Below, one piece after another: positions 1,681 to 64,000 of a stretch of 64,000 nt of DNA. Position numbers and translations under genes: made by a program. The notes beneath the pieces were generated by a model that was not told the origin of the DNA, made no database searches, and saw only the letters and a program-made list of their open reading frames with translations. Position 1 is the stretch's first letter; every line of letters starts with the position of its first letter. This DNA comes from an uncultured delta proteobacterium (lineage in GTDB: Bacteria; Myxococcota_A; Polyangia; Fen-1088): NCBI GenBank assembly GCA_963737265.1, contig CAVTRY010000011.1, positions 864,001-928,000 of the forward strand. The letters run 5' to 3'.

Positions 1681-3189
1681 ATGTTTCTGTGGTTGCGCCG
1701 CTCCTACCAAGTCGTTTTTCTCGGTTTTTTTCTGTTCCTGATTTTCGCCGCCACCTCGCTCTACATCCGCGGCTACGACGTTCAGTGGTTCCTCGAGCTC
1801 GATCCACTGGTCGCGCTCACCACCGCGCTTTCATCCCACGTTCTTCACCACGCGTTGTGCTGGTCGCTGCCGCTCATCGTTCTCACGCTGGTTTTTGGGC
1901 GCTTCTTTTGTAGCTGGATGTGTCCCATGGGCGTGCTCCATCACGTCCTTGGCTACCTCGGTCGCAAGCGCAAGGTCCTTGATCGCGTAAAGCAGAACAA
2001 CCCGAGACCTTCGCGCAAGGTCAAATACGCCATACTTGCCGTCATGCTCGGGCTGGCGGCCGCTGGCAGCACGCAGATCGGGCTGCTCGACCCCATCGCG
2101 TCTACCTGGCGCGGTCTTTCCGTTTCGGTGCTGCCCGCGGCCAGCAATACCGCCTTCGGGCTTTACCAGGGCGAGCGCCACTTCCAGTGGGGCACGTTCG
2201 TCGCCATCGTATTCTTCGGCGCGCTGGCGCTGAATTTCGTCTATCCGCGCTTCTACTGCCGCGTTCTGTGCCCACTCGGCGCCTTCCTCGGCGTTCTGTC
2301 GAAATTCTCGCTCTTCCGCATCAGCAAGGATCCCAAGATCTGCAACGAATGCGAGGTGTGCGGGGCCGACTGCCAAGGGGCCGCCGATCCGCAGGGCACC
2401 GTGATGGCGACCGAGTGCATGGTCTGCCTCAACTGCACCAAGGGCTGCAAACGCGGTGGCCTCGCCTATCGCTTCTTGCCTCCGGTCACGCTGTCCACGA
2501 CCGAAACCGATCTCTCGCGGCGCAAGTGGCTTGGCGCCGGCGTGGCTGGCATGGCAGCGGTTCCGCTCATGCGCGCATCGGACGGTGTGGATCCGCGCCC
2601 CAACCCGGCCCGCATTCGCCCGCCCGGCGCGCTCGACGAGCCCGATTTCCTCGCCAAATGTCTCAAGTGCGACGCCTGCATGAAGGTCTGCCCTACCAGC
2701 GCTTTGCAGCCGGCGCTTCACGAGGCCGGCCTCGAAGGCTTCTGGTCCCCAATTCTTGTCGCGCGCCTGGGCTACTGCGAACACAGCTGCACCCTGTGCG
2801 GCCAAGTTTGCCCCACCGGCGCTATCAAACATCTGACGGTCGCGGAAAAGGTGGGCGACATGCCGGCCAAGCCGCCGGTGCGCATCGGCTCCGCTTGCTT
2901 CGACAAGGGACGCTGCCTGCCTTGGGGATACGAGACCGAATGCATCGTGTGCGAAGAGGTCTGCCCCACCTCGCCCAAGGCCATCTACTTCAAAGTCGAA
3001 ACCATCACGGCGCGCGACGGCAGCCAGAAGACCCTGAAATTTCCTCACGTCGACCTCGACCATTGCACCGGATGCGGCACGTGTGAAAATCGCTGTCCAG
3101 TCGTGGATCGCGCCGGCGTACGCGTCAGCGCGGCCAACGAAAGCCGCACATCCAAGAGCAGCATGTCCCTGACCGGCGGCAAGATTTAG
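1681..3189 (+). CDS. Membrane 4Fe-4S binding polyferredoxin (NapH/MauN plus NapG/MauM-like)
   Basis: GRFFCSWMCPMG, RFYCRVLCPLG, RPPGA and several CxxCxxCxxxCP motifs; ATG at 1681 follows GGAGGA; the track ORF from 1006 is over-extended. Confidence 0.85.
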   Translation: MFLWLRRSYQVVFLGFFLFLIFAATSLYIRGYDVQWFLELDPLVALTTALSSHVLHHALCWSLPLIVLTLVFGRFFCSWMCPMGVLHHVLGYLGRKRKVLDRVKQNNPRPSRKVKYAILAVMLGLAAAGSTQIGLLDPIASTWRGLSVSVLPAASNTAFGLYQGERHFQWGTFVAIVFFGALALNFVYPRFYCRVLCPLGAFLGVLSKFSLFRISKDPKICNECEVCGADCQGAADPQGTVMATECMVCLNCTKGCKRGGLAYRFLPPVTLSTTETDLSRRKWLGAGVAGMAAVPLMRASDGVDPRPNPARIRPPGALDEPDFLAKCLKCDACMKVCPTSALQPALHEAGLEGFWSPILVARLGYCEHSCTLCGQVCPTGAIKHLTVAEKVGDMPAKPPVRIGSACFDKGRCLPWGYETECIVCEEVCPTSPKAIYFKVETITARDGSQKTLKFPHVDLDHCTGCGTCENRCPVVDRAGVRVSAANESRTSKSSMSLTGGKI

Positions 3190-3216
3190 ATTGCCAGAAG
3201 GCCCGACGCCTTCGTG

Positions 3217-3453
3217 CTACCGTTTCGTGTGGCTACCGTCGCAAAACGGCTTGTTGCGCGACTGCTTGCAGCCGCACAGAACCGCTTGACCAATGTCGGT
3301 CTGGGCGATCTTGACGGGAGAAAAAAGCGTCCCCCGATGGGAGCCATCGCAGAAGGGCTGGCGCGCCGATCGGCCGCAAGCACACCAATAGTAGTCCCCG
3401 CGTTCCAGCTTGACGACGTAGGGTTGCTTTCGCGCACCGACCGGGTCACTCAT
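3217..3453 (-). CDS. CDGSH iron-sulfur domain protein
   Basis: Two motifs: WCACGRS..QPFCDGSH and LCGCKQS..KPFCDGSH. Confidence 0.9.
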   Translation of the reverse strand: MSDPVGARKQPYVVKLERGDYYWCACGRSARQPFCDGSHRGTLFSPVKIAQTDIGQAVLCGCKQSRNKPFCDGSHTKR

Positions 3454-3553
3454 CGCAACAGCTCCCGTCGAGTATGGCAGGTCGCCTACCGAGAACAACT
3501 CGAATTGGTCGACGACATCGCATTCACGATGTAGATTCCAGGGCAAGCGGGAC

Positions 3554-4720
3554 ATGGGCTGCTACGTAACAGTTCGAACCGACATCGGCGTCCTCGCGCT
3601 GGGTTTCAGCGAGCGCGGTCTCTCTCGGGTGCTGCTGCCCAGTGCACACTGGACCGATCTCAAGCCAGCCGACCTTGCCGCCGCCGGATTCAAGACCGAG
3701 ACGCAAGCACCGCCCGAAATTGCCGCCTTGGCTCGGGGACTCCAGGCGCACCTTGCGGGCGATGTTCGGGACTTCTCGAAGGCGCCGCTCGACACCGGCG
3801 GTATTTCCCCATTCCTGTTGCAAGTGCAGCGCGCTGCCCAGGCGATTCCGCCGGGACAGACGCAAACCTACGGTGAGCTCGCGTCCTCGGCTGGTGTGCC
3901 AAGCGCCGTCCGCGCCGCGGGCCGTGCCATGTCCGCCAATCGATTTCCCATCATCGTTCCCTGCCACCGCGTGGTCGCCCGCTCAGGTTTTGGCGAATAT
4001 TCGGCGGCCAGCGGCGTGCACACCAAGCTGCGTCTCCTCTGGCGCGAGGGCTACCGCGGCCGAACGTCGAACGTTTCCTTCGACGAACGCAAAGCCATCG
4101 CGCACTTGCGGGCCGCCGACCCGCGCCTCGCCGATTTGATCGACCGCGCCGGCCCGTTCACCATGCAGGCCACGTCGCCGCGTCCGCGCGGTGGCGCGCA
4201 GCCTTTCTCGGTCCTGGCCAGCGCCATCATCGCACAGCAGCTTTCAGGCAAGGCGGCTGCGACGATTCACAGCCGCGTGGCCGCGTTGCTAGGCAGCGAT
4301 CGCGTCGACGATGCCCAGGCCGTGCTCGCTTTCCCAAAGGCAAAGCTGCGCCAAGCTGGTCTTTCGGAGAACAAGGCGCTGTCGCTGCTGGAGCTCGCCC
4401 GCCACGCGACCTCGGGAGCCCTGCCAACCCGCGCCGCCATGGAAAAGCTGTCCGACGATGACATCATCGAACGCCTCACCCAAGTCCGCGGTATCGGTCG
4501 CTGGAGCGCACAGATGTTGCTGATGTTCTACCTTGGCCGCCCCGACGTTCTGCCGGTGTCGGATCTCGGCGTTCAGAAAGGCCTTGCTGCCGCCTATCGC
4601 AGCCGCTCGCTGCCAAGCGAAAAGACATTACTGCGAGCAGCGCGCGCCTGGTCACCGTACGCGACGGTCGCCAGTTGGTATCTGTGGCGAGCGGTCGAGC
4701 TCGCGGCCTACTCCGCCTAG
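3554..4720 (+). CDS. Fusion of O6-methylguanine-DNA methyltransferase (Ogt) and AlkA-family 3-methyladenine glycosylase
   Basis: IPPGQTQTYGELA and PCHRV in the N-half; IAQQLSGKAA, VRGIGRWSAQM, LPVSDLGV (HhH-GPD) in the C-half. Confidence 0.88.
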   Translation: MGCYVTVRTDIGVLALGFSERGLSRVLLPSAHWTDLKPADLAAAGFKTETQAPPEIAALARGLQAHLAGDVRDFSKAPLDTGGISPFLLQVQRAAQAIPPGQTQTYGELASSAGVPSAVRAAGRAMSANRFPIIVPCHRVVARSGFGEYSAASGVHTKLRLLWREGYRGRTSNVSFDERKAIAHLRAADPRLADLIDRAGPFTMQATSPRPRGGAQPFSVLASAIIAQQLSGKAAATIHSRVAALLGSDRVDDAQAVLAFPKAKLRQAGLSENKALSLLELARHATSGALPTRAAMEKLSDDDIIERLTQVRGIGRWSAQMLLMFYLGRPDVLPVSDLGVQKGLAAAYRSRSLPSEKTLLRAARAWSPYATVASWYLWRAVELAAYSA

Positions 4721-54750: not shown

Positions 54751-55002
54751 ATGGTCACGGTTCAAGTGCAACTCCCCGAGGAAACCTTCTCGGCGCTTCG
54801 TCGGTCTCCCGACGAAATGGCCGGCGATCTGCGTCTTGCTGCCGCCGTGCACTGGTACTCGCGCGGCCTCATCTCGCAAGAGCGCGCTGCACAGCTGGCC
54901 GGGCTTGACCGCACGGATTTCATCCTGGCCCTCGCCCGCGAGGGTGTGGACGCCTTCGCAGTGGACATGAACTCGCTCAGGCGAGAACTGGCCGATGGCT
55001 GA
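54751..55002 (+). CDS. UPF0175 family antitoxin
   Basis: LRLAAAVHWY..GLISQERAAQLAGLDRTDF. Confidence 0.8.
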   Translation: MVTVQVQLPEETFSALRRSPDEMAGDLRLAAAVHWYSRGLISQERAAQLAGLDRTDFILALAREGVDAFAVDMNSLRRELADG

Positions 55003-55480
55003 CCAGGCCGTTGTCAACGCATCACCGCTCATCTGCCTGAGTCGCGCCGGTCTGGTAGATCTGCTTCGGCAGGCGGCGAAGACGATCATCGTGCCGGCGG
55101 CGGTGGCACGCGAGATCCTAGCGCGCGGCCCGAGCGACGTGACGGCCAACGCAGTGGCCACGGCCACGTGGATGAAGCAGGCCGATGACATCGCCATACC
55201 GTCCAACGTCCTGGCGTGGGATCTCGGCGCCGGTGAATCGTCCGTGTTGGCGTGGGCGCTTTCCCACCCGGGAACGCCTGCCATCATTGACGACCTTCAA
55301 GGCCGCCGTTGTGCAGAATCCTTGGGCATCACCTTGCGCGGCACCGTAGGCCTCGTCTTGCGCGCCCGCCGCTCCGGACTGATCGATTCGGCCCGCGCCG
55401 CCCTCGAACGTCTGCGCCGAGGTGGAATGTACCTCTCGGATCGCCTCTGCGTCGAAGTGCTGAAAGAAGTAGGCGAATAG
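54995..55480 (+). CDS. DUF3368/PIN-like protein
   Basis: VVNASPLI, LGAGES, IIDDLQGR, GTVGLVL. Confidence 0.8.
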   Translation: MADQAVVNASPLICLSRAGLVDLLRQAAKTIIVPAAVAREILARGPSDVTANAVATATWMKQADDIAIPSNVLAWDLGAGESSVLAWALSHPGTPAIIDDLQGRRCAESLGITLRGTVGLVLRARRSGLIDSARAALERLRRGGMYLSDRLCVEVLKEVGE

Positions 55481-55564: not shown

Positions 55565-56142
55565 CTAGAGATGCCGCGCGCTGACAGACGCGCGCAGCGT
55601 GCCGACGATGCGGGAAACCGCGCTCTTCGACAGCGGGGCATCCTTGAGCAATGGCCGAAGCGCCCCGCGAATTCGACGACTATTGCCACCAGCCAAGTAC
55701 ACGCCAGCGATGGCCTCGTTGATCTCTGGCATGCGGCGCTGGTAGCGCGGAACGATGCTCGAACGCCACTCCTCGTTGCCACCGTCGTCTCGCAGCAGGC
55801 GCCCGCGTGGCAGTGTCAATTCCACCGGCCCGGTCGGGCACGTGAGCGTCCTGGACTTGCTCCCGTTTCGATAGCCACTGCGTTCGGCGCCGCGCTCGTA
55901 CGCGGCTACGCCCAACACGGCCTGCAATTCCTCTTCGACAGCCTGCTCGATGGTCCTGCGAACCGCTTGATGGATCAGTGAACCAAGCGAGACTTCATCA
56001 GCCCCAACTGGACGTAGATTCCTGGTAAATTTCTTCACGGCGCATTCCTTTCCTTGGTTGCGTCCGGCATGGTGCCGGACTGCGTTTCACACCCAGGAGA
56101 ATGCGCCTCCTTTCAAATTTCCACACGACTCGGGACGGAACC
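55565..56142 (-). mobile_element. Truncated IS256-family element (left end plus transposase N-terminus)
   Basis: YRNGSKSRTL..GPVELTLPR..YLAGGNSRRI..LSKSAVSR; DDE core missing; IR-like end near 56114-56142. Confidence 0.75.
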
Positions 56143-56215
56143 TGGCTTTACGTAAGGCGTCCCTTCATGTATACGTTTCCACGCAGTTCGGTTGGCCTGG
56201 ACGCGGAGAAACTCC

Positions 56216-57235
56216 ATGAATCGCATGTTCCCTACGAAGTTCAGACTGGCTTCTGCATCGGTGGTTTCAGCCATGGCTATTCTTGCGTCCTTGTGCCCAA
56301 GAACCAGCGCCGCTGAAAAGCGAACGCACGAGCTATTCGCCGTATTGACTGACGCGGAAACGAATACGCCCGTCCCGTCAGTCAGGATAATGCTGGCGCC
56401 CCAAAAAGGTAATCACGAATGCACGATTGATACCAGACTCACGGGGATCAGCAACGAAAAGGGTGAAGTTCTGATTCCAAATGTCAAACCTGGCGAATAC
56501 ATCGTTTTCCAAAGTCCATCAGGGTCTCTCAACCCGGAACTGAACGGAAAGGTGGTGACCTGGATGCCTTCTTCAGGTGGCTACGGCTTCTCGTTCGGTG
56601 CCGTGAGGGCCACCAAGGGCAACATGGTGATCACTTCCGAAGGCGATCTCGGGATCGCCAATGGATACATGGAAGCGCAAGTAGCCGCTGGGGACGACGG
56701 CATACTAGGCATCAGCACAACTGCCAAAGGAAGCTTGTCAACGGTGCGGACGCCTTGGACTAAAGGAGACCACCTAATCATCGTGACTAAGGCTGCCCAC
56801 ACGGACCTGCGTGCGCCATCACCGCCGAAAGAGAAATCGCCCGTGCCCTCTGCGCCTATGACTTCCTCGGTTCGGACATCGGTGTCTGCATCCGCGTCGC
56901 ACCTGGCCGGAGCGGCTGAGAACCCCGGTGAGACGTTCAAAGCGGTTGGGCTCGTCTGGCAGAAACAGCCACGCGATATGAACTGGAACGACGCCGCAGC
57001 ATACTGTGCGAGGCTGTCTGGGGGCCACTGGCGGTTACCGTCGCTCGAAGAACTCTCGGCGCTGGCGAAAAGCCACTCCATCGCGGCGGAGCCCCAGGGG
57101 ACGTCGCATGGGTGGTACTGGTCCTCTTCGGCGAAAGGGGACGTCGCGTGGTACGTGAGCTTCATCGAGCGTTACGAGGGGTCCAGTATGTCCTATACGG
57201 CATACGGCGTGCTGTCCGTCCGATGTGTCCGTTAA
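56216..57235 (+). CDS. Secreted protein with C-terminal DUF1566 (Lcl-like) domain
   Basis: Signal-peptide-like N-terminus; GLVWQ..NWNDAAAYC..WRLPSLEEL..YWSSS..VRCVR. Confidence 0.75.
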   Translation: MNRMFPTKFRLASASVVSAMAILASLCPRTSAAEKRTHELFAVLTDAETNTPVPSVRIMLAPQKGNHECTIDTRLTGISNEKGEVLIPNVKPGEYIVFQSPSGSLNPELNGKVVTWMPSSGGYGFSFGAVRATKGNMVITSEGDLGIANGYMEAQVAAGDDGILGISTTAKGSLSTVRTPWTKGDHLIIVTKAAHTDLRAPSPPKEKSPVPSAPMTSSVRTSVSASASHLAGAAENPGETFKAVGLVWQKQPRDMNWNDAAAYCARLSGGHWRLPSLEELSALAKSHSIAAEPQGTSHGWYWSSSAKGDVAWYVSFIERYEGSSMSYTAYGVLSVRCVR

Positions 57236-57252: not shown

Positions 57253-57402
57253 CGTGTGAGAGTCTGGGTTGGCGATACAACGTACTTGCCTGTGATCGGT
57301 GGTTTCATCTTCCTGGTCGTGTTCATCGACCTCTTCTCACGCAAGGTGGTTGGTTGGTCGCTGGGTGACCGCCTTGATGCCGATTTGTCGAGAGAGGCAC
57401 TT
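57253..57402 (+). pseudogene. IS3-family transposase fragment, part 1
   Basis: VWVGDTTY..IDLFSRKVVGWS..SREAL; reading frame resumes at 63433. Confidence 0.8.
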
Positions 57403-57576
57403 CTTCATCGCCGGTGGTCCCGAAAATGGGGATGGCGGCTTGGTGCCGAAATTCGGGCGGGCGGCGGAGCAGCGATGGTGGGCGGGCCATCGCGGTTTAA
57501 GAGGCCGAAATGGAAAGGGCACGGGAAGTCGCGCCTGGGCGACTTCCCGTGCTCTTGGGACAGATTGGGCTGACGA

Positions 57577-58362
57577 CTAATCGTCGAGGGGAGCGCCGAC
57601 GATCTCCTTTGGGGCGCGGCAGCTTTTGCCTGTGAAGCGAAGGATGGTAGCGCGGTCGACCAGGCGGTCGACGGTGGAGACGGCGGAGGCTTCGGAGGGA
57701 AAGGCGTTCTTCCATTGCTGAAAGCCGGTATTGGCGGTGAGCACGATCGAGCCCTGGCCGTGTCTGGCACCGACGACGCGGAACAGGTAGTTGGTGGTGT
57801 GGGTGTCAAAGGCCTGGTAGGCGAATTCGTCGATGAGCAGCAGCGCCGGCTTGACGTAGCGGCGCAGGGCCCGGCGGAAGGTGCCGTCGGCCTGCGAGGC
57901 GTGGAGGTCTTCAAGCATGTCGGCGCAGAGGACGCAGAGGGTGGAGTGACCAGCGATGCAGGCTGCGTGGGCCAGGGCCTTGGCGATGCGGGTCTTGCCG
58001 GTGCCGGGTTTGCCGAGACAGAGGACGTTGCGGCGCTCCTCGACGAATCGGCAGTTGACCAGCTCGTTGACCACGCGGGGCTCGAGTTGTGGCCGAATCT
58101 GAAAGTCGAATCCGTCGAGTCCCTCGACCGTGCCGAGGCGCGATCGACGCAAGCTGCGCTCAAGACGGCGCTCGCGGCGGGCATCGGTCTCGGCACGAAG
58201 CAAGGCACCGGCAAAGGCCGTGAAGGCCATGCCCTCCTGTTCAGCACGGCGAAGCATGCTGGGCAAGGCTGCGGACAGTGTGGTCAGGTCCAGGTCGATG
58301 GCGAGTTGGACCAGCTCATCGACGGGATCTGGAGCCGGTGGGCGGTGGCGACTACGAGCCAT
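57577..58362 (-). CDS. istB: IS21 helper ATPase
   Basis: GKPGTGKT, LLLIDEFAY, VDRL, FTGKSCR. Confidence 0.92.
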   Translation of the reverse strand: MARSRHRPPAPDPVDELVQLAIDLDLTTLSAALPSMLRRAEQEGMAFTAFAGALLRAETDARRERRLERSLRRSRLGTVEGLDGFDFQIRPQLEPRVVNELVNCRFVEERRNVLCLGKPGTGKTRIAKALAHAACIAGHSTLCVLCADMLEDLHASQADGTFRRALRRYVKPALLLIDEFAYQAFDTHTTNYLFRVVGARHGQGSIVLTANTGFQQWKNAFPSEASAVSTVDRLVDRATILRFTGKSCRAPKEIVGAPLDD

Positions 58363-60052
58363 GATTGTCCTCCTCAGGGAGCGCGACTGACAAGGTGGCG
58401 TTCCCGTGGCTCGCTTCTTGGTGGCCAGGCTGGGCGTCGAGGTCGGCAAATGCGTCGAGAGAGGGCGCCTCGATCTCGCCAAGGATGGTGGGACCGCATC
58501 CGAAAAGTGGCGAGACAGCGTCGATGTCGGGCAGCGGCTCGGCCTGCTGGTCGAGGATGCGTTCGACGGCGGTGGCATCGAAACGGCGAAAGTGCTGGAC
58601 CCTGGTGGCGGCGACACGAAAAGCGTCTTCGCCGAAGCGGTCGCACAAACGCAGCAGGGCGCGGATGTGGATGGGCGCGAGGGTCTTCATGCGGCACTTG
58701 AGGCCATCGACCAAAGGAGCGAGGTCGGGAAAGCGACGTAGGAAGGCCTCGTCGAGGCGGTCGCCACCGTCGACCAGGCCCCGACCAAATCCGCGTCGTG
58801 GGAGATTGGCGTAGTGGGTCTCGTCGATGACGAGACGGCCCTTCTGCTCGTCGGGGACGTAGATGCGGGAAAAGGCGACGCAGCCGTGCGGGTCGAGGAC
58901 GTCGAAGTGCTCGGCAAAGAGCCGTACGGCGACTGAACGGCCCGCCAGTGCGGCGGGCACCGTGTACCTGGTCCCGTGGATCGAGAGAGTGGAGTCGCGA
59001 TCGACGATCCGTGGGGCGCTCTCGTGGACCGGGAAGCGGTCTCGGGGTAAGCGGATGAGCAGGGCGTGTTCCTCGCTGTCCCAGACCTCGTTGGGGACGC
59101 GCCGGGTGGTTCCGTGGACGCGGAGGTTGCCGAGAGTTGGAGTTTCGTCGAGCCAGCGGCGACAGCGCGCGTGCAGGTCGTCCCAGGAGGCGAATTCGGT
59201 GCCCTTGACGAAATCGTCCCAGACGAGGCGGAAGGACTTCTCCTTCTTGCCCTTGCGATCTGGGTCGCGGACTTTGCAGGCGAAGGCATCCATGCCGTAG
59301 TGGCGGACGAAGTCAGCGAAGCGGTCATGCCACAGGGGCTTGCGCCCAGAGCCTATGCGGCCGAGGACCGCAGTCGACATGTTGTCCAGGACCAGCCGAT
59401 GTGCGACGCCGTCAAAGTACTCGAAGGCGCTGGCAAGCCCCTCAAGTAGAGTCGACTGGCGCTCGTCACGGTAGAAGTGGAGGAAGAGTTTGCGCGAGTA
59501 GCACAGGAGGCAGCCGAGGACATGTACCTTCACCGGTCGGCCCGCTATCAGGATTTCGTAGGGGCTCCAGTCGATCTGCATCTCGACCGCGGGACCAGTC
59601 TCGAAACGGCGCTTGGTGGTTGGCTTCCGTGGTAGCACCGTCATCTCGGCGCGGAGCTTGCGGAGGTGTTCGGCCAAGATCGTCCGGCCGCCCGAGTACC
59701 CCATTCCCGTGATCTCGCGCAGGATGCGGGTGGCCGTCAGGTCTTTCTGTACTCGATCGGCAATGGGCTCGTAGAATGGCTGAAGCTTGCTGTGAGCCAG
59801 CAGGGGCGTGTGCAGCGTCGCCAGCAGCCCTCGCTCTCGCAAGACCCGCTCGACCATCTGTCGAGTCAAGTTCGTGCGTTTGGCAATCTTCCGACTGCCG
59901 TAGAATGGGTGCAACTCCACAATTTTCTCGAGTTGCTCCAGGGTGAGCGTGCGCCGCGGCCGGCCCCGTTTGAGTTGCGGTGGCGCCGCCGGGGGTGGAT
60001 TCACAGGCGGTGAGCGGAGGGCTTCCGGCGGGTCTTTCGTGTCCATGTTCAT
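58352..60052 (-). CDS. istA: IS21-family DDE transposase
   Basis: RFETGPAVEMQIDW, LVLDNM, KGKKEK; C-terminal YTVP beta domain. Confidence 0.92.
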   Translation of the reverse strand: MNMDTKDPPEALRSPPVNPPPAAPPQLKRGRPRRTLTLEQLEKIVELHPFYGSRKIAKRTNLTRQMVERVLRERGLLATLHTPLLAHSKLQPFYEPIADRVQKDLTATRILREITGMGYSGGRTILAEHLRKLRAEMTVLPRKPTTKRRFETGPAVEMQIDWSPYEILIAGRPVKVHVLGCLLCYSRKLFLHFYRDERQSTLLEGLASAFEYFDGVAHRLVLDNMSTAVLGRIGSGRKPLWHDRFADFVRHYGMDAFACKVRDPDRKGKKEKSFRLVWDDFVKGTEFASWDDLHARCRRWLDETPTLGNLRVHGTTRRVPNEVWDSEEHALLIRLPRDRFPVHESAPRIVDRDSTLSIHGTRYTVPAALAGRSVAVRLFAEHFDVLDPHGCVAFSRIYVPDEQKGRLVIDETHYANLPRRGFGRGLVDGGDRLDEAFLRRFPDLAPLVDGLKCRMKTLAPIHIRALLRLCDRFGEDAFRVAATRVQHFRRFDATAVERILDQQAEPLPDIDAVSPLFGCGPTILGEIEAPSLDAFADLDAQPGHQEASHGNATLSVALPEEDNHGS

Positions 60053-60769
60053 AGGGGTCCTTTCTCGTGGTGGATGGCCGAGGCCAAAGCTTGGCGTCGG
60101 CACTCAGGGTGGTCGCGGTCCGTCCAAGGTCGTCGAGGACGGCGCGGAAGAGCGCTTCCAGGCGTCGCCGCTCCGGTGGCGCCAGATCGCTCGGCAGATG
60201 GAAATTCGCGAGCTCGTGTAGCGTCTTGCGAAAGTGGGCCAGCGTGTCCGTCAGGACCGACGCTCGCGTCGAAAGCGAGGCTGACGTCGTAGCCGGTGCC
60301 AGTTGCCCGAGCGGATCATCAATCAGGCAGCGGCGATCCGCGGGATCGGCGGCCCGGTAGGCGGCGACCAGTGCGAGCGCTCTTCGGGTGGGTACATGGT
60401 GGTGTGTGATGGCGGCAAGCACCGTGGCCTGGTCCTGTCGCCCGAGCGGAGCCAGCGCTTCGGCGAGCGATGGGCCAATACGCCCTTGCGCCAGCGCCGC
60501 GCTCGCCTCCGCGCCGAGTGAAGTGGACCCCTTTGGTAGGACCAGAAATGGCCCGAGCTAAGAGAGAGTCCGCGTGGGTTTGTTTGTAGATCCGGGTGAG
60601 CCTCGCCGGCAAGGAAATTGTTGAGAGCGGAGGCATGCTGATGGCTGCTGTCCACGGATGCAATGCGCGCACGGCCCCACAGAAGCAGGTGAACGCGTTG
60701 CAGTTGTGGGCAGCGTGCCATCAGCATGATGCAGCGGCGATTTAGGCGGCCTCTTTCATCGCCGACTTC

Positions 60770-61579
60770 TTTAGTTCGAATTCGTAAAACGCTACGGGTG
60801 TCTGAAATCCAAGGGTTTGGTGAGGCCGCCTGTGGTTGTACTTGTCCAGGTAGATCGCGATGCCACTGCGGGCGTCGGCCACGTCTCGGTAGTCGTTCAA
60901 GTAGACCTCCTCGCATTTGACAGACCGCCATAGACGCTCGAACGAAGATGTTGTCCATGAATCGGCCGCGACCGTCCATGCTGACCTTTACGCCCTTGTC
61001 CAGCAAAACCGATGTGAAGTTGTCGTCGGTAAACTGCGACCCCTGGTCGGTGTTGAAGATCTCCGGCAAGCCGAAGTTCGCAAGAGCTTCTTCCACGACC
61101 TCGATGCAAAAACGGCTGTCCATCGTGTTTGAAATGCGCCAGGACAGAACCCGGCGCGTGTACCAATCCATCACGGCGACCAGGTAGCAATGCCCCTGTC
61201 TCGTCGGGATGTACGTGATATCCGAGGCCCACACCTGATTGGGCCGAATGATCGCGAGATGGCGCAGCAAGTACGGGAATTTCGTATGTTCCGGCGCGGG
61301 CACGGTCGTCCGTGGTTTGGGCGCCAGCGCTTCGATGCCCATGATTCGCATCAGTCTCTGCACCCGTTTGCGATTCACCGTCTGCCCCTGTGCCTTTAGC
61401 AACCGTGACAGCTTCCGGCTGCCGAATGCTGGCAATTCGAGATGCAGCTTGTCCAGCTCCTTGCAGATGGCCAGATCTTCCTCTGCCATCGGCATCGGCT
61501 CCCAGTAGATGCCCGATCTCGCAAGATTCAGCAGCTCGCACTGCCGACGGACAGATAGGTCGTTGTGGGGCTCGATCAT
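60770..61579 (-). pseudogene. IS3 OrfB transposase, frameshift near 60942
   Basis: WASDITY, NTDQGSQF, DNIFV; ERLWRSVK..EVYL lies in another frame; 3' end approximate. Confidence 0.85.
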
Positions 61580-61593
61580 GGCGCGCTTCTCCG

Positions 61594-61887
61594 TCAGCGA
61601 ATGCGCGCGAGCCCGCGTGCTAAAAAATCATTCTCCAGCGTCAGCTGCCCCACCTTGCGCAGCAATTCCGATTCGCGTTCGGCGTTCGCCGATTCCTCTG
61701 CATTTGCATGGCCTGGTTCGAAAACCATGGCCAGCCGTGTGACGGCTTCCTTCTTCCACTTGTGAACCAGGTTCGGGTTGATCTTGTATCGGCGCCCGAT
61801 CTCCACAACCGTTGCCTGCTCCCGCATGGCTTCGAGAGCTACCTGCGCCTTGAAGAGTGCTGTGTGCTTTTGGCGGTTCGTTTTCAT
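61594..61887 (-). CDS. IS3 OrfA
   Basis: FKAQVALEA..HTH..KVGQLTLENDFL. Confidence 0.88.
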   Translation of the reverse strand: MKTNRQKHTALFKAQVALEAMREQATVVEIGRRYKINPNLVHKWKKEAVTRLAMVFEPGHANAEESANAERESELLRKVGQLTLENDFLARGLARIR

Positions 61888-62416
61888 CGTGTCCTGCCTC
61901 GTTGTTGAGGCGGACTACACCTTAGCTCCTGGTCCCATTTTTGGGGTCCACTTCAGAGATGTCTGGCCAATAGCAGCCGCCGCTCTACCCAGTCAGTCTT
62001 GCGTCCGCAAAGAAGCGCCACTGCCCGCGCTGACAGCTCGTCCTCGTCGACCAAGGAGGCGACGACCCGTGCCTCGTCGAGCGCGGTCAAGGAGCGCGGT
62101 GGGGCATTGGCGGCCAGCATGGTGCGCTTGTGGTCGATGCGCGAGGCCGATATCTCCAGCATCACTGGCACGTGACTGTGGCCTTGCGCCCGCCAGCGAC
62201 TGAGACGCTTGAACCCGTCAAGCACCTCGTAATGGCCATCTTCCGTCTGCGCCACCCGTACCGGCAGCTCTGCCGTGAGCATTTCCGTGGGTGCAAGACA
62301 GCCGGGACGGAGGTGCGCATAGCTTGTCCGTAGATTGGACACGGGCAGAAAGCACACTGCCCCAGCCACCTCGTCCGGCACACGCGCTTGTGGCGCAGGC
62401 AGGTCGACCGGGGCGT

Positions 62417-62794
62417 TCACCGCAACCTTTCGAAAAGCAACAGCTGGCGGAGATCTCGGTAATCACCCATACCCCGAAGCTGGTCCGCCTGGCGCGGTGG
62501 CCGGCGGGCCTCGACCACGTCGACCGTGTAAAGGGGCGTCCGCTCGTGCTCGGCGTCGAGTGTGGCACACAGACTCGACCCGTATGGACTGCCCCCTGAT
62601 CCCGCAAAAACTACACCGTGGACCTTCTGCTTCTGCCACAGCGCCAGCGCTTCTAATAGCGTTGGCAATGCACGTGCGTGCCAGGGCGTTCGCTCCAGCC
62701 GGGCCTTCAGTATCGTCTCGCCCGCATCCCCGGTCACCAGGACTCGTGTCGATCCCCGCCCCGGGTGGATTGCCACCAGGATTCGCTCTTCCAT
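62417..62794 (-). CDS. Hypothetical accessory protein of the IS21 element
   Basis: RBS AAGGAGGA; GTGA overlap with the ParB-like gene; LKARL..ALPTLLEALALW. Confidence 0.7.
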   Translation of the reverse strand: MEERILVAIHPGRGSTRVLVTGDAGETILKARLERTPWHARALPTLLEALALWQKQKVHGVVFAGSGGSPYGSSLCATLDAEHERTPLYTVDVVEARRPPRQADQLRGMGDYRDLRQLLLFERLR

Positions 62795-63170
62795 CGCATT
62801 CCTCCTTGCCGCCTGAATCCAGCGACAAGGGGATCTGTACCGGCAACGCAAATTCTTGGTGAGACCTATGAGTCACTTTCTGTCGGCACACGCGCTGCCG
62901 CCTGGCATGTGCACGCCGGCCCCCACGGGTCGATTGCCGAAGGCGGCTGGCCTTACGCCACGATGCGAGCAGGGCCAGTCGGCTGCAGGTGGCCGTGCAG
63001 TAGCGATTGCCGTGGTCGCAGCGAGAGCAGACGAAAAACACCTGCCCACAGCCGGGCAGGCTACATATCGCTATCCGAATCGAGTCCAATCGCGCGTCCC
63101 GTCCTGCGGCGCCCAAAAACTGGACATCTGCCTCGGAACCTGCGACGACTCGGTCGTCGACGCGTCCCAA
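62463..63170 (-). CDS. Cys-rich zinc-finger-like accessory protein of the IS21 element
   Basis: CSLPGC..VCSRCDHGNRYC...C, basic RQR segment, C-terminal CSFCG; start uncertain. Confidence 0.55.
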   Translation of the reverse strand: MGRVDDRVVAGSEADVQFLGAAGRDARLDSIRIAICSLPGCGQVFFVCSRCDHGNRYCTATCSRLALLASWRKASRLRQSTRGGRRAHARRQRVCRQKVTHRSHQEFALPVQIPLSLDSGGKEECDGRANPGGNPPGAGIDTSPGDRGCGRDDTEGPAGANALARTCIANAIRSAGAVAEAEGPRCSFCGIRGQSIRVESVCHTRRRARADAPLHGRRGRGPPATAPGGPASGYG

Positions 63171-63432
63171 CGTACCGACACGAGGGGCCCGGGTGTTGTG
63201 ACCCGTGCCCCTCCTCCTTCGGGAGCCGCAGCCCCCTGCTTACGCCACCTCCACCGCTGCCGCGAATTTCCTGACCAGGCCGGCGCCGTGGTCCCGTCAG
63301 CCAGCCGTCCCCGTAGGCTTCACACCGCGGAAGTCACGCCACCATGCACGCTGCTCGCCCAGCCAACGCCCCATCTCCGATTTTCGGGCCACCGCCGCTA
63401 CGGAATTTCGGAGCCACCGTCACTGAAGACTT

Positions 63433-63729: not shown

Positions 63730-64000
63730 GTGCCGTCAAGAAATAAACTTTACATGAGCGTCTGCCGCAGTACCATTTGAGCCGATTGGACCCGACACAA
63801 AGTCTCAAAGGGAAGTTCCGTCTGGTGTGGCCACACTTGAGTGAGCGTGCTCGGCGTATGCTTGCGGCGGCGGAGGCCACCAATATTGGCTATGGCGGCG
63901 TGAGTCTCGTGAGTCGCGCATGCGGCCTGTCACGGGTGACCATTACGAAGGGCGTGAAGGAACTGCGACAGAAACCTCTGCATGGAGAGCGAGTTCGACG
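63729..64000 (+). mobile_element. ISAzo13-family element, 5' part (transposase from ~63777, runs off the window)
   Basis: PHLSERARRMLAAAEA..GYGGVSLVSRACGLSRVTITKGVKEL. Confidence 0.8.

Follow-up and report, generated by a model that had tools for sequence, protein, structure and literature searches.

We analysed a stretch of 64,000 nt (hereafter the window) of the genome of an uncultured delta proteobacterium (GenBank assembly GCA_963737265.1, contig CAVTRY010000011.1, positions 864,001 to 928,000 of the forward strand), in which the region 57403-63428 is occupied by an insertion sequence of the IS21 family. Besides the transposition genes istA and istB, the element carries a gene for a ParB-like protein, an open reading frame (ORF) with Zn-finger motifs and a small gene. 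It belongs to a large IS21 sublineage with a ParB-fold protein as a conserved third component, which is undescribed in the literature searched.

Precisely, the region consists of an IS21-family element of 4,586 bp, a nested IS3-family element of 1,437 bp and the 3-bp duplication of the latter. The limits are set by an uninterrupted second full copy, also of 4,586 bp, on contig C21 of the same genome (L010:2001-6586): the identity spans from CTTCAG at one end to CTGAAG at the other, and outside it the flanks are unrelated. The two full copies are listed as 100% identical, yet their bit scores are slightly apart and a few residues differ in the translations, hence we considered them as nearly identical. 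Two partial copies were found in the same genome (element positions 1-983 and 1689-4566, the latter at a contig end).

The copy in the window is bordered by the duplication ACTT (a 5-bp reading is possible if the end is moved by one base) and the C21 copy by the 5-bp duplication AGCTG. When the element and one duplication are taken out of the window, the frame of an rve integrase-core gene is restored, with Pfam rve positions 7-52 on the left and 55-102 on the right; the C21 copy is inserted in an RHS-repeat gene. Since two complete copies have different flanks and different duplications, the five genes are mobile as a single unit. The element has been active recently. The limits, ends, duplication and gene list that an earlier note had read from the letters of this DNA were confirmed against the intact copy, as were the size of ~4.6 kb without the IS3 and the nesting of the IS3, which has inverted repeats of 27 nt, Pfam matches and a flanking 3-bp duplication GAG, equal to the 3-base overlap of the two element halves in the intact copy.

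All five genes are on the minus strand, in the order Zn-finger ORF, small gene, ParB-like gene, istA and istB, inside the ends and co-oriented as the earlier note had it. IstA passes the NCBIfam model transpos_IS21 (NF033546, 206.8 bits with a cut-off of 160, E 5e-61), and IstB passes Pfam IstB_IS21 (PF01695, E 1.2e-56, 192.4 bits vs a cut-off of 24.1), with 199 bits for NCBIfam IS21_help_AAA (NF038214), just below the cut-off of 200. The istB gene is directly 3′ of istA and overlaps it at 58352-58362. By its transposition genes the element is of the IS21 family, and the five genes are a departure in gene content and not in the transposition genes. It shares with canonical IS21 and IS5376-type elements the curated IstA model, the IstB family, the istA/istB overlap, the sub-terminal repeats and a duplication of 4-5 bp, whereas it has five genes instead of two and CTTCA...TGAAG instead of TG...CA termini. 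Coordinates are collected in Table 1.

Table 1. Position of the element, its genes and its non-coding features in the window
Feature	Position	Strand	Evidence or remark
Whole IS21-family element	57403..63428	-	Limits are the exact span identical to the intact copy
Target duplication ACTT, left copy	57399..57402	.	Right copy 63429-63432
Left end (gene orientation)	63371..63428	-	CTTCAGTGAC, then two GGTGG..CCGAAAWT repeats
Right end (gene orientation)	57403..57460	-	Inverted counterpart, two CCGAAAWT repeats
Imperfect palindrome GGGGCACGGGT-CACA-ACCCGGGCCCC	63188..63213	-	Just 5′ of the Zn-finger ORF, candidate operator
Zn-finger ORF, 235 aa (amino acids)	62463..63170	-	CxxC...CxxC...YCxxxC N-terminal, RCxxCG C-terminal
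Small gene, 125 aa, predicted RuvC/YqgF-like (RNase H) fold	62417..62794	-	Codon pattern; homologs; AlphaFold2 (AF2) model
ParB-like gene, N-terminal part (residues 1-155, including DGFKR)	61956..62420	-	Cut by the IS3
ParB-like gene, C-terminal part	59850..60518	-	Intact ORF L010:3009-4139; codon pattern
istA, DDE transposase, 583 aa	58352..60103	-	NCBIfam transpos_IS21; Pfam rve, Mu-transpos_C_2
istB, AAA+ helper ATPase, 261 aa	57577..58362	-	Pfam IstB_IS21
Hairpin with 18-nt arms, directly 3′ of istB	57515..57556	-	Inverted-repeat search
Nested IS3-family element, foreign to the IS21	60519..61955	-	Inverted repeats; Pfam HTH_Tnp_1, rve

The ParB-like protein and its linkage to IstA

The intact ParB-like ORF of the C21 copy has 376 aa. 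The final ~85 codons, which run into the beginning of istA in a different frame, do not have the codon pattern of a coding sequence, hence we considered a functional part of about 295 aa. An AF2 model built with 11 relatives (predicted local distance difference test, pLDDT, of 86.8) has the ParB N-terminal domain and the helix-turn-helix (HTH), together about 200 residues. Its best Foldseek matches are the Myxococcus xanthus ParB structure with the cytidine triphosphate (CTP) analogue CTPgammaS (7bnr, probability 1.00, E 6.6e-10), followed by Noc, B. subtilis ParB-CDP (6sdk), C. crescentus ParB and KorB; with the family profile, the matches in the PDB were Noc (2.2e-11) and Spo0J (1.2e-7). Weak SbnI and sulfiredoxin matches stand lower in the structure and profile lists. 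The earlier note had called the gene ParB-like from a DGFKR motif plus an HTH, and the predicted fold bears this out, with the curated models below cut-off: these match weakly (noc E 4.3e-7, parB_part 7.4e-5, HTH_ParB 0.0026), with 22.6 bits vs 58.45 for TIGR00180, 29.6 vs 315 for noc and 18.3 vs 22.6 for PF17762, and PF02195 gave no match in the protein.

The last Arg of the GERR motif of ParB is required for CTP binding, and the box-I Gln plus two motif Glu for CTP hydrolysis. In the profile alignment GERR corresponds to GFKR, ENLQR to ANAPPR and the box-I Gln to a Leu; other residues stand at the positions of the ParB/Noc box-I Gln and of the two motif Glu, and only G69, R72, N105 and R109 are kept of the pocket. 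Among 23 diverse members of the family D68, G69 and R72 are invariant, together with W144, V145 and R148 of the HTH. On its model the protein is a divergent member of the ParB/Noc/KorB type (N-domain plus HTH), with the GxxR arginine kept, and from its residues it may still hold a nucleotide, probably without hydrolysis. The predicted N-domain and HTH fold and the aligned G-x-x-R and N...R motifs are shared with KorB of RK2, Noc and ParB and, by analogy only, KorB is likewise the product of a mobile-element gene beside a small second protein of DNA-binding type. Unlike these proteins, the ParB-like one lacks the box-I Gln, both Glu and a ParA/KorA homolog, stays below the curated thresholds, has a C-terminal helical hairpin of its own with the conserved motif LAPPERRRLEA, and has a DDE transposase and an AAA+ ATPase as partners; no ParA-type gene was found in the Pfam and NCBIfam scans of the element genes. 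A complex prediction for IstB with the ParB-like protein scored 0.00; it gives no support and no verdict, and was not used as evidence.

The family is large. A profile search among 1.84 billion cluster representatives (50% identity) gave 1,043 matches at E<=1e-30, 16,529 at 1e-10 and 51,576 at 0.001, where the matches weaker than 1e-30 will include ordinary ParB proteins. Relatives of about 30-35% identity were present in 9 of 61 related genomes (its own included), and in 12 of the 16 related-genome loci that were fetched the gene was directly 5′ of homologs of IstA and IstB, which at these loci are 27-34% identical to those of the window.

Two larger sets of loci were considered. The first one, clade B, comes from a scan of species-representative genomes with a sub-alignment, which gave 379 relatives, mostly in Acidobacteriota and also in bins labelled Verrucomicrobia, Planctomycetaceae, Gemmatimonadaceae and Acetobacteraceae. 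Among the 78 loci kept, IstA was downstream on the same strand in 71 (six contig ends and one rearrangement explain the misses), the Zn-finger ORF upstream in 75 and IstB present in 61. A contig of a bin labelled Bathyarchaeia (L119) also holds a clade-B element, whose ParB-like protein is 72% identical; this could be a binning error or a transfer. The second set, clade A, is that of the window element itself. A metagenome scan with the single ParB-like protein did not find any relative, and the same scan with an alignment of close relatives found 236, from which 80 loci (41-54% identical) were kept. IstA was downstream in 67 of them (12 contigs end within about 330 nt and one gene is truncated) and IstB was in 47. 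The co-occurrence with IstA, which the earlier note had proposed as a check, is observed at 12/16, 71/78 and 67/80 loci, nearly all misses in the two larger sets being contig ends.

Sampling was also started from IstA, with 35 places matching it at E<=1e-20 in the 61 related genomes. Upstream of IstA there was a ParB-like gene at 19 places, the Zn-finger ORF plus the small gene at 7, the small gene only at 1, the Zn-finger ORF only at 4 and none of the three at 3; at the remaining place (1/35) the contig breaks off. Among 72,556 plasmid records, even the top matches to IstA stayed below 36% identity. No ParB-like relative adjoining IstA was found in these records, where only three distant true ParB genes matched, and in the six plasmid loci inspected no accessory gene was annotated upstream of istA. 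One of these loci, on a Paraburkholderia plasmid (NZ_AP023183), has an unannotated Zn-finger ORF 5′ of the annotated istA (L230:2972-3439), where the annotation has a hypothetical gene on the other strand instead.

In an IstA tree of 71 rows, the rows with the ParB-like gene form clades of 35 (support 100), 17 and 3 (support 100) plus one single row, and three changes of ParB-like state suffice. A smaller tree has 23 rows, of which 19 are IstA-ascertained loci and 4 are references from plasmids; here two changes suffice, with a mean of 7.7 after shuffling and 0 of 500 shuffles as low; in the approximately unbiased (AU) test, the tree joining all ten positive rows was not rejected (p-AU 0.559). 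The tree of the ParB-like protein recovers the IstA clades (A with support 100, C with 96-100), with three changes in all, the minimum possible. Pairwise distances of the ParB-like protein and IstA (56 protein pairs) have a correlation of 0.87 (0.68 within clade A, 0.95 within clade B; Mantel p 0.001). The co-phylogeny of the two, a further check proposed in the earlier note, is observed in both trees and distances. The ratio of non-synonymous to synonymous substitution rates (dN/dS), computed on 28 pairs from eight clade-B elements, was 0.13 for the ParB-like gene, 0.13 for IstA, 0.11 for IstB and 0.38 for the Zn-finger ORF. In three deep IstA clades the ParB-like protein is found side by side with IstA and IstB.

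The Zn-finger ORF and the small gene

The small gene is read in a different frame from the Zn-finger ORF, whose 3′ half it overprints, and the same was observed in L207, L209 and L214, with an overlap of about 240-330 nt. The RCxxCG motif of the Zn-finger ORF is inside this overlap, and the overprinted arrangement recurs in diverged elements. The codon pattern of the small gene is a coding one, and that of the Zn-finger ORF is coding-like in the first ~320 nt only; the C-terminal part of the latter is considered real, since RCxxCG is kept in elements in which the small gene was not detected. Common to the Zn-finger proteins are an N-terminal Cys cluster, a middle part of basic character and the C-terminal RCxxCG. 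Neither the ORF of the window nor its relatives match any Pfam family at E<=10 (TniQ included), save a weak match to the zinc ribbon of Rhodanese_C (E 0.025). Only 1 match was found in the protein database; gene annotation probably seldom includes this ORF.

For the small gene there are 146 homologs of about 123-125 aa, without a Pfam family or name. Its AF2 model (pLDDT 73.4) has the order beta-beta-beta-alpha-beta-alpha-beta-alpha, and VIA-align placed it near poxvirus resolvase (Z 10.2), YqgF (8.7), RuvX (8.6), the IS110-type ISCro4 (8.2, 21% identity) and RuvC (7.5); the Foldseek match to YqgF had E 7.5e-5, and a language-model lead to the IS110 DEDD domain (0.89) is below the trust level of the tool. 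On this model the protein is of the RuvC/YqgF-like RNase H fold. While the predicted fold is shared with RuvC, YqgF (RuvX) and the N-terminal DEDD domain of IS110, the small protein stands alone (125 aa), is overprinted, has no Pfam match and does not conserve the acidic catalytic positions, which in a 27-sequence alignment are H/D/Q at beta-1 and D/G at beta-4. The positions invariant in this alignment are T16, R17, K30, H39, W53, D114, R116 and Q117.

With a profile of the small gene we found 28 places in 15 of 101 related genomes. Nine of these outside the element's own copies were compared and all 9 are directly 5′ of IstA, in elements without the ParB-like gene. A relaxed search gave weak profile matches (E 0.006-0.5) at the same place in the four elements classified as having the Zn-finger ORF only, so the patchy distribution is partly a limit of detection. 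In the 80 closest loci with the ParB-like gene, a tblastn search detected the Zn-finger ORF once and the small gene not at all. A Cys-motif ORF was upstream in 10 of the 53 clade-A loci with room for it. The subclades of L127-L206 have differing unnamed ORFs 5′ of the ParB-like gene, among them a further type of Cys-rich ORF, and about 36 of the 53 loci share an ORF of about 140 aa; the clustering of these upstream ORFs by blastp is blurred by overlapping frames, and no Pfam family was found for any of them. Among 144 IstA rows, the element of the window alone has all three extra genes. Judging from these sequences, the Zn-finger ORF and the small gene are recurrent IS21 accessory genes, less constant than the ParB-like gene.

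Ends, non-coding signals and surroundings

IS21 elements typically have 5′-TG...CA-3′ termini and target duplications of 4-8 bp. The ends of the element in the window, which are CTTCAG...CTGAAG and not TG...CA, have inverted repeats, repeated sub-terminal motifs and a short duplication, as in this family. Precisely, the terminal repeats are imperfect (19 of the first 25 positions match) and at each end there are two copies of GGTGG..CCGAAAWT, the presumed binding sites of IstA. Related clade-B elements with the ParB-like gene end in TGT...ACA. Eleven target duplications, from five kinds of element, were compared (ACTT, AGCTG, CCGGCGG, AGCTTCC, GATTGC, GTTAG, CCAAG, TGCTGCG, GATGGT, CCCGAT and ATTAGGGG), and they have no common motif. 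The two insertion contexts in this genome, the rve gene and the RHS gene, are unrelated, and no attachment site or target motif was seen among the insertion sites compared. Since the eleven duplications are without a common motif, sequence-specific targeting is disfavoured. In the clade-B loci L101 and L102, each copy has on its left a sequence matching the one that flanks the other copy on its right, as expected from an inversion between inverted copies.

The hairpin 3′ of istB is most likely a terminator, because the GC-rich hairpins that relatives have at the same place are unrelated in sequence. The palindrome at 63188-63213 is only a candidate operator. In the 5′ 500 nt of clade-B elements (L059-L110), before the first gene, a conserved promoter-like TTGCGA-17-TATTGA precedes two conserved palindromes, CCGGAGAGGA-N7-TCCTCTCCGG and GGGAG-N9-CTCCC, with compensatory changes between elements; these also are candidate operators. 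The 7-mer GCACGGG was considered as a parS-like site and rejected, with 4 occurrences vs about 2 expected by a rough estimate.

As regards the nested IS3, its orfA is at 61594-61887 and its orfB at about 60742-61579. It has 24 matches in the genome, of which 20 are full length at about 100% identity, and the same IS3 also splits a copy of a different IS21 element with a ParB-like gene (L213:6706-8141). The same genome has two more IS21 elements with a ParB-like gene, both distantly related, one on contig C10 (L044) and one on C12, C14 and C11 (L211-L213). One of these two has a ParB-like protein 93% identical to that of a contig from an Acidiferrales bin, which suggests a recent transfer, and the other is 4,000 bp long and present in three copies with 7-bp duplications.

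Close to the element, the window has a UPF0175 gene and a DUF3368 gene that adjoin with overlapping ends (54751-55480), a toxin-antitoxin-type pair in appearance, then a fragment of a Mutator-family transposase (55565-56038, minus strand), a protein with an Lcl_C domain (56192-57235, plus strand) and, on the other side, an open-ended ORF without any Pfam match (63777-63998, plus strand). On the basis of the Mutator fragment, the Lcl_C protein, the open-ended ORF and the broken rve gene taken together, we considered this end of the window as rich in insertion sequences.

As regards distribution, 16 DNA runs, sampled from soil, peat, sediment and permafrost, have contigs with near-identical words of the element, and one of these runs is possibly its own source. 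Pieces of it, 90-99% alike (8 of 15 pieces 95-99%), are in contigs of four RNA libraries from three studies and two of them cover the ParB-like gene; DNA carry-over is possible for all these contigs, and the parts of the element that these contigs leave uncovered carry no information.

Possible roles of the extra genes

The co-occurrence with IstA, the trees, the distances, the dN/dS values and the size of the family, considered together, make a passenger unlikely, and the joint evolution of the ParB-like gene with the transposase hints at a transposition helper that had gone unnoticed. The extra genes have thus been part of IS21 sublineages over the long term and are not passengers. In this respect the earlier note, which had proposed that they belong to the core machinery, is upheld for the ParB-like gene by co-occurrence, co-divergence and dN/dS, and in part for the Zn-finger ORF and the small gene, which are recurrent and less constant; its suggestion of target selection, immunity or regulation goes beyond what these data show.

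The reading that we favour, and that in our judgement is somewhat probable, is that the ParB-like protein, a long-standing and co-evolving component of this IS21 sublineage, would act on the DNA of the element itself as a regulator or architectural factor. IstA, as DDE transposase, and IstB, as AAA+ target-capture ATPase, are the engine, and the three genes upstream belong to the same operon. The ParB-like protein would be a sequence-specific DNA-binding dimer of the ParB/Noc/KorB type, which would bind the promoter/operator region or the ends and so set the level or the assembly of transposition, in analogy with KorB and with other HTH regulators encoded by insertion sequences that act on their own elements. 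The Zn-finger and RuvC/YqgF-fold proteins are further recurrent IS21 accessory proteins. IS1 InsA, the OrfA of the IS3 family and the Mu repressor and Ner offer a partial likeness, since they also have an HTH protein 5′ of the transposase and a plausible autoregulation, while the fold of the ParB-like protein is unrelated to theirs, and the protein is larger (about 295 aa) and has the remnant of a nucleotide pocket.

Several points weigh against this reading. All the functional statements rest on predicted structure and analogy, and no curated ParB model of Pfam or NCBIfam reaches its cut-off with the protein. A binding site for it was not identified in the element sequences inspected: the ends, upstream and 3′ regions have no convincing parS-like site, the 3′ palindrome was rejected as such because it is terminator-like, and the clade-B palindromes, given their compensatory changes, may be RNA hairpins. 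Moreover, many IS21 elements are without the ParB-like gene (the canonical plasmid ones and a clade of 9 rows with the Zn-finger ORF, with or without the small gene), and since they work without it, the gene is not needed for the basic chemistry. The loci L049-L206 were found through the ParB-like protein, whose presence there is by construction, so that they measure its linkage to IstA and IstB and not its frequency. Close relatives of IstA could not be sampled independently, as an IstA match at E<=1e-60 was found in 0 of 400 other genomes of the phylum. Close IstA homologs without the extra genes, which would speak against the earlier note, were not found, the closest relatives having been ascertained through the ParB-like gene.

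The main rival, which we consider rather unlikely, is that the ParB-like protein is a target selector or immunity factor, which would load on DNA, perhaps as a spreading clamp, and steer or exclude the assembly of IstB. TniQ and TnsD act with TnsC in this way of choosing a target, and MuA clears MuB from nearby DNA. An operon shared with an AAA+ target-capture ATPase and a fold of the ParB/KorB/Noc group, that of CTP-gated sliding clamps, are as expected from such a factor, and the LAPPERRRLEA motif could be a partner-binding peptide, but the protein has other residues in place of the box-I Gln and of both motif Glu, and the eleven duplications and their contexts (rve and RHS genes) offer no common motif. 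Tn7 and Tn5053 (TnsB/TniA, TnsC/TniB, TniQ/TnsD) are similar in having a DDE transposase, an AAA+ regulator and extra DNA-binding proteins, one of them Cys-rich; on the other side, the Zn-finger ORF has no match to TniQ and no attachment site or target motif was seen. To our knowledge, the ParB fold has not been reported for these systems.

We considered it improbable that the extra genes are cargo, helping the host replicon or the element (plasmid partition, silencing, anti-defence) with no part in transposition. ParB-family proteins do have many roles outside transposition, the genes 5′ of the ParB-like gene differ between subclades and there are IS21 elements without any of the three genes; against this, the place and orientation of the ParB-like gene beside istA are fixed across clades whose IstA proteins are about 30% identical, the trees are congruent and the distances correlated, its dN/dS is as low as those of IstA and IstB, the gene extends into the 5′ end of istA, and there is no ParA partner inside the element. 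Even less probable, and hardly credible, is a function of the ParB-like protein as an enzyme (nuclease or user of nucleoside triphosphates) within the wider ParB/Srx superfamily, which would process a transposition intermediate, perhaps with the RuvC-fold protein: the weak SbnI and sulfiredoxin matches and the adjoining RuvC/YqgF-fold gene would suit it, but by far the best matches are DNA-binding proteins (ParB, Noc and KorB, HTH included), the RuvC-fold family is without conserved acidic catalytic positions and its gene was detected in 0 of the 80 closest loci with the ParB-like gene (tblastn with the element's own protein).

A bolder proposal, which we consider unlikely, is that the ParB-fold protein is a third transposition protein of a large IS21 branch, which would load at a site of the element, mark the DNA around it and control where IstB can assemble, with the Zn-finger and RuvC-fold proteins in the same machinery. 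If this were true, it would be a case of cis-immunity or of target choice by a clamp-type mechanism, which is not known for any transposon.

In the accessible part of recent structural papers (PMC12486865), IS21 is described as encoding IstA and IstB, and in the accessible part of a review on the mobile elements of Acidobacteria IS21 is only in the reference list (PMC3469429). In a full-text search, no paper was found to connect accessory genes of the ParB-like, Zn-finger or RuvC-like kind with IS21; this search did not extend to ISfinder, TnPedia or subscription journals, where an earlier description is possible.

IS21, in its usual description an element of two genes, is a structural model for transposases under the control of a dedicated AAA+ ATPase. 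The present analysis places a ParB/KorB-like protein in whole IS21 sublineages abundant in soil, peat and sediment, where its divergence follows that of IstA and its constraint is equal to that of IstA and IstB, and it places Zn-finger and RuvC-fold genes, mostly missed by annotation, in other IS21 sublineages. Unannotated overlapping genes are in this way flagged inside common insertion sequences. The range of the ParB/CTP-switch fold is extended to transposons, and the role of a ParB-fold protein in DDE/AAA+ transposition becomes a concrete question that can now be tested.

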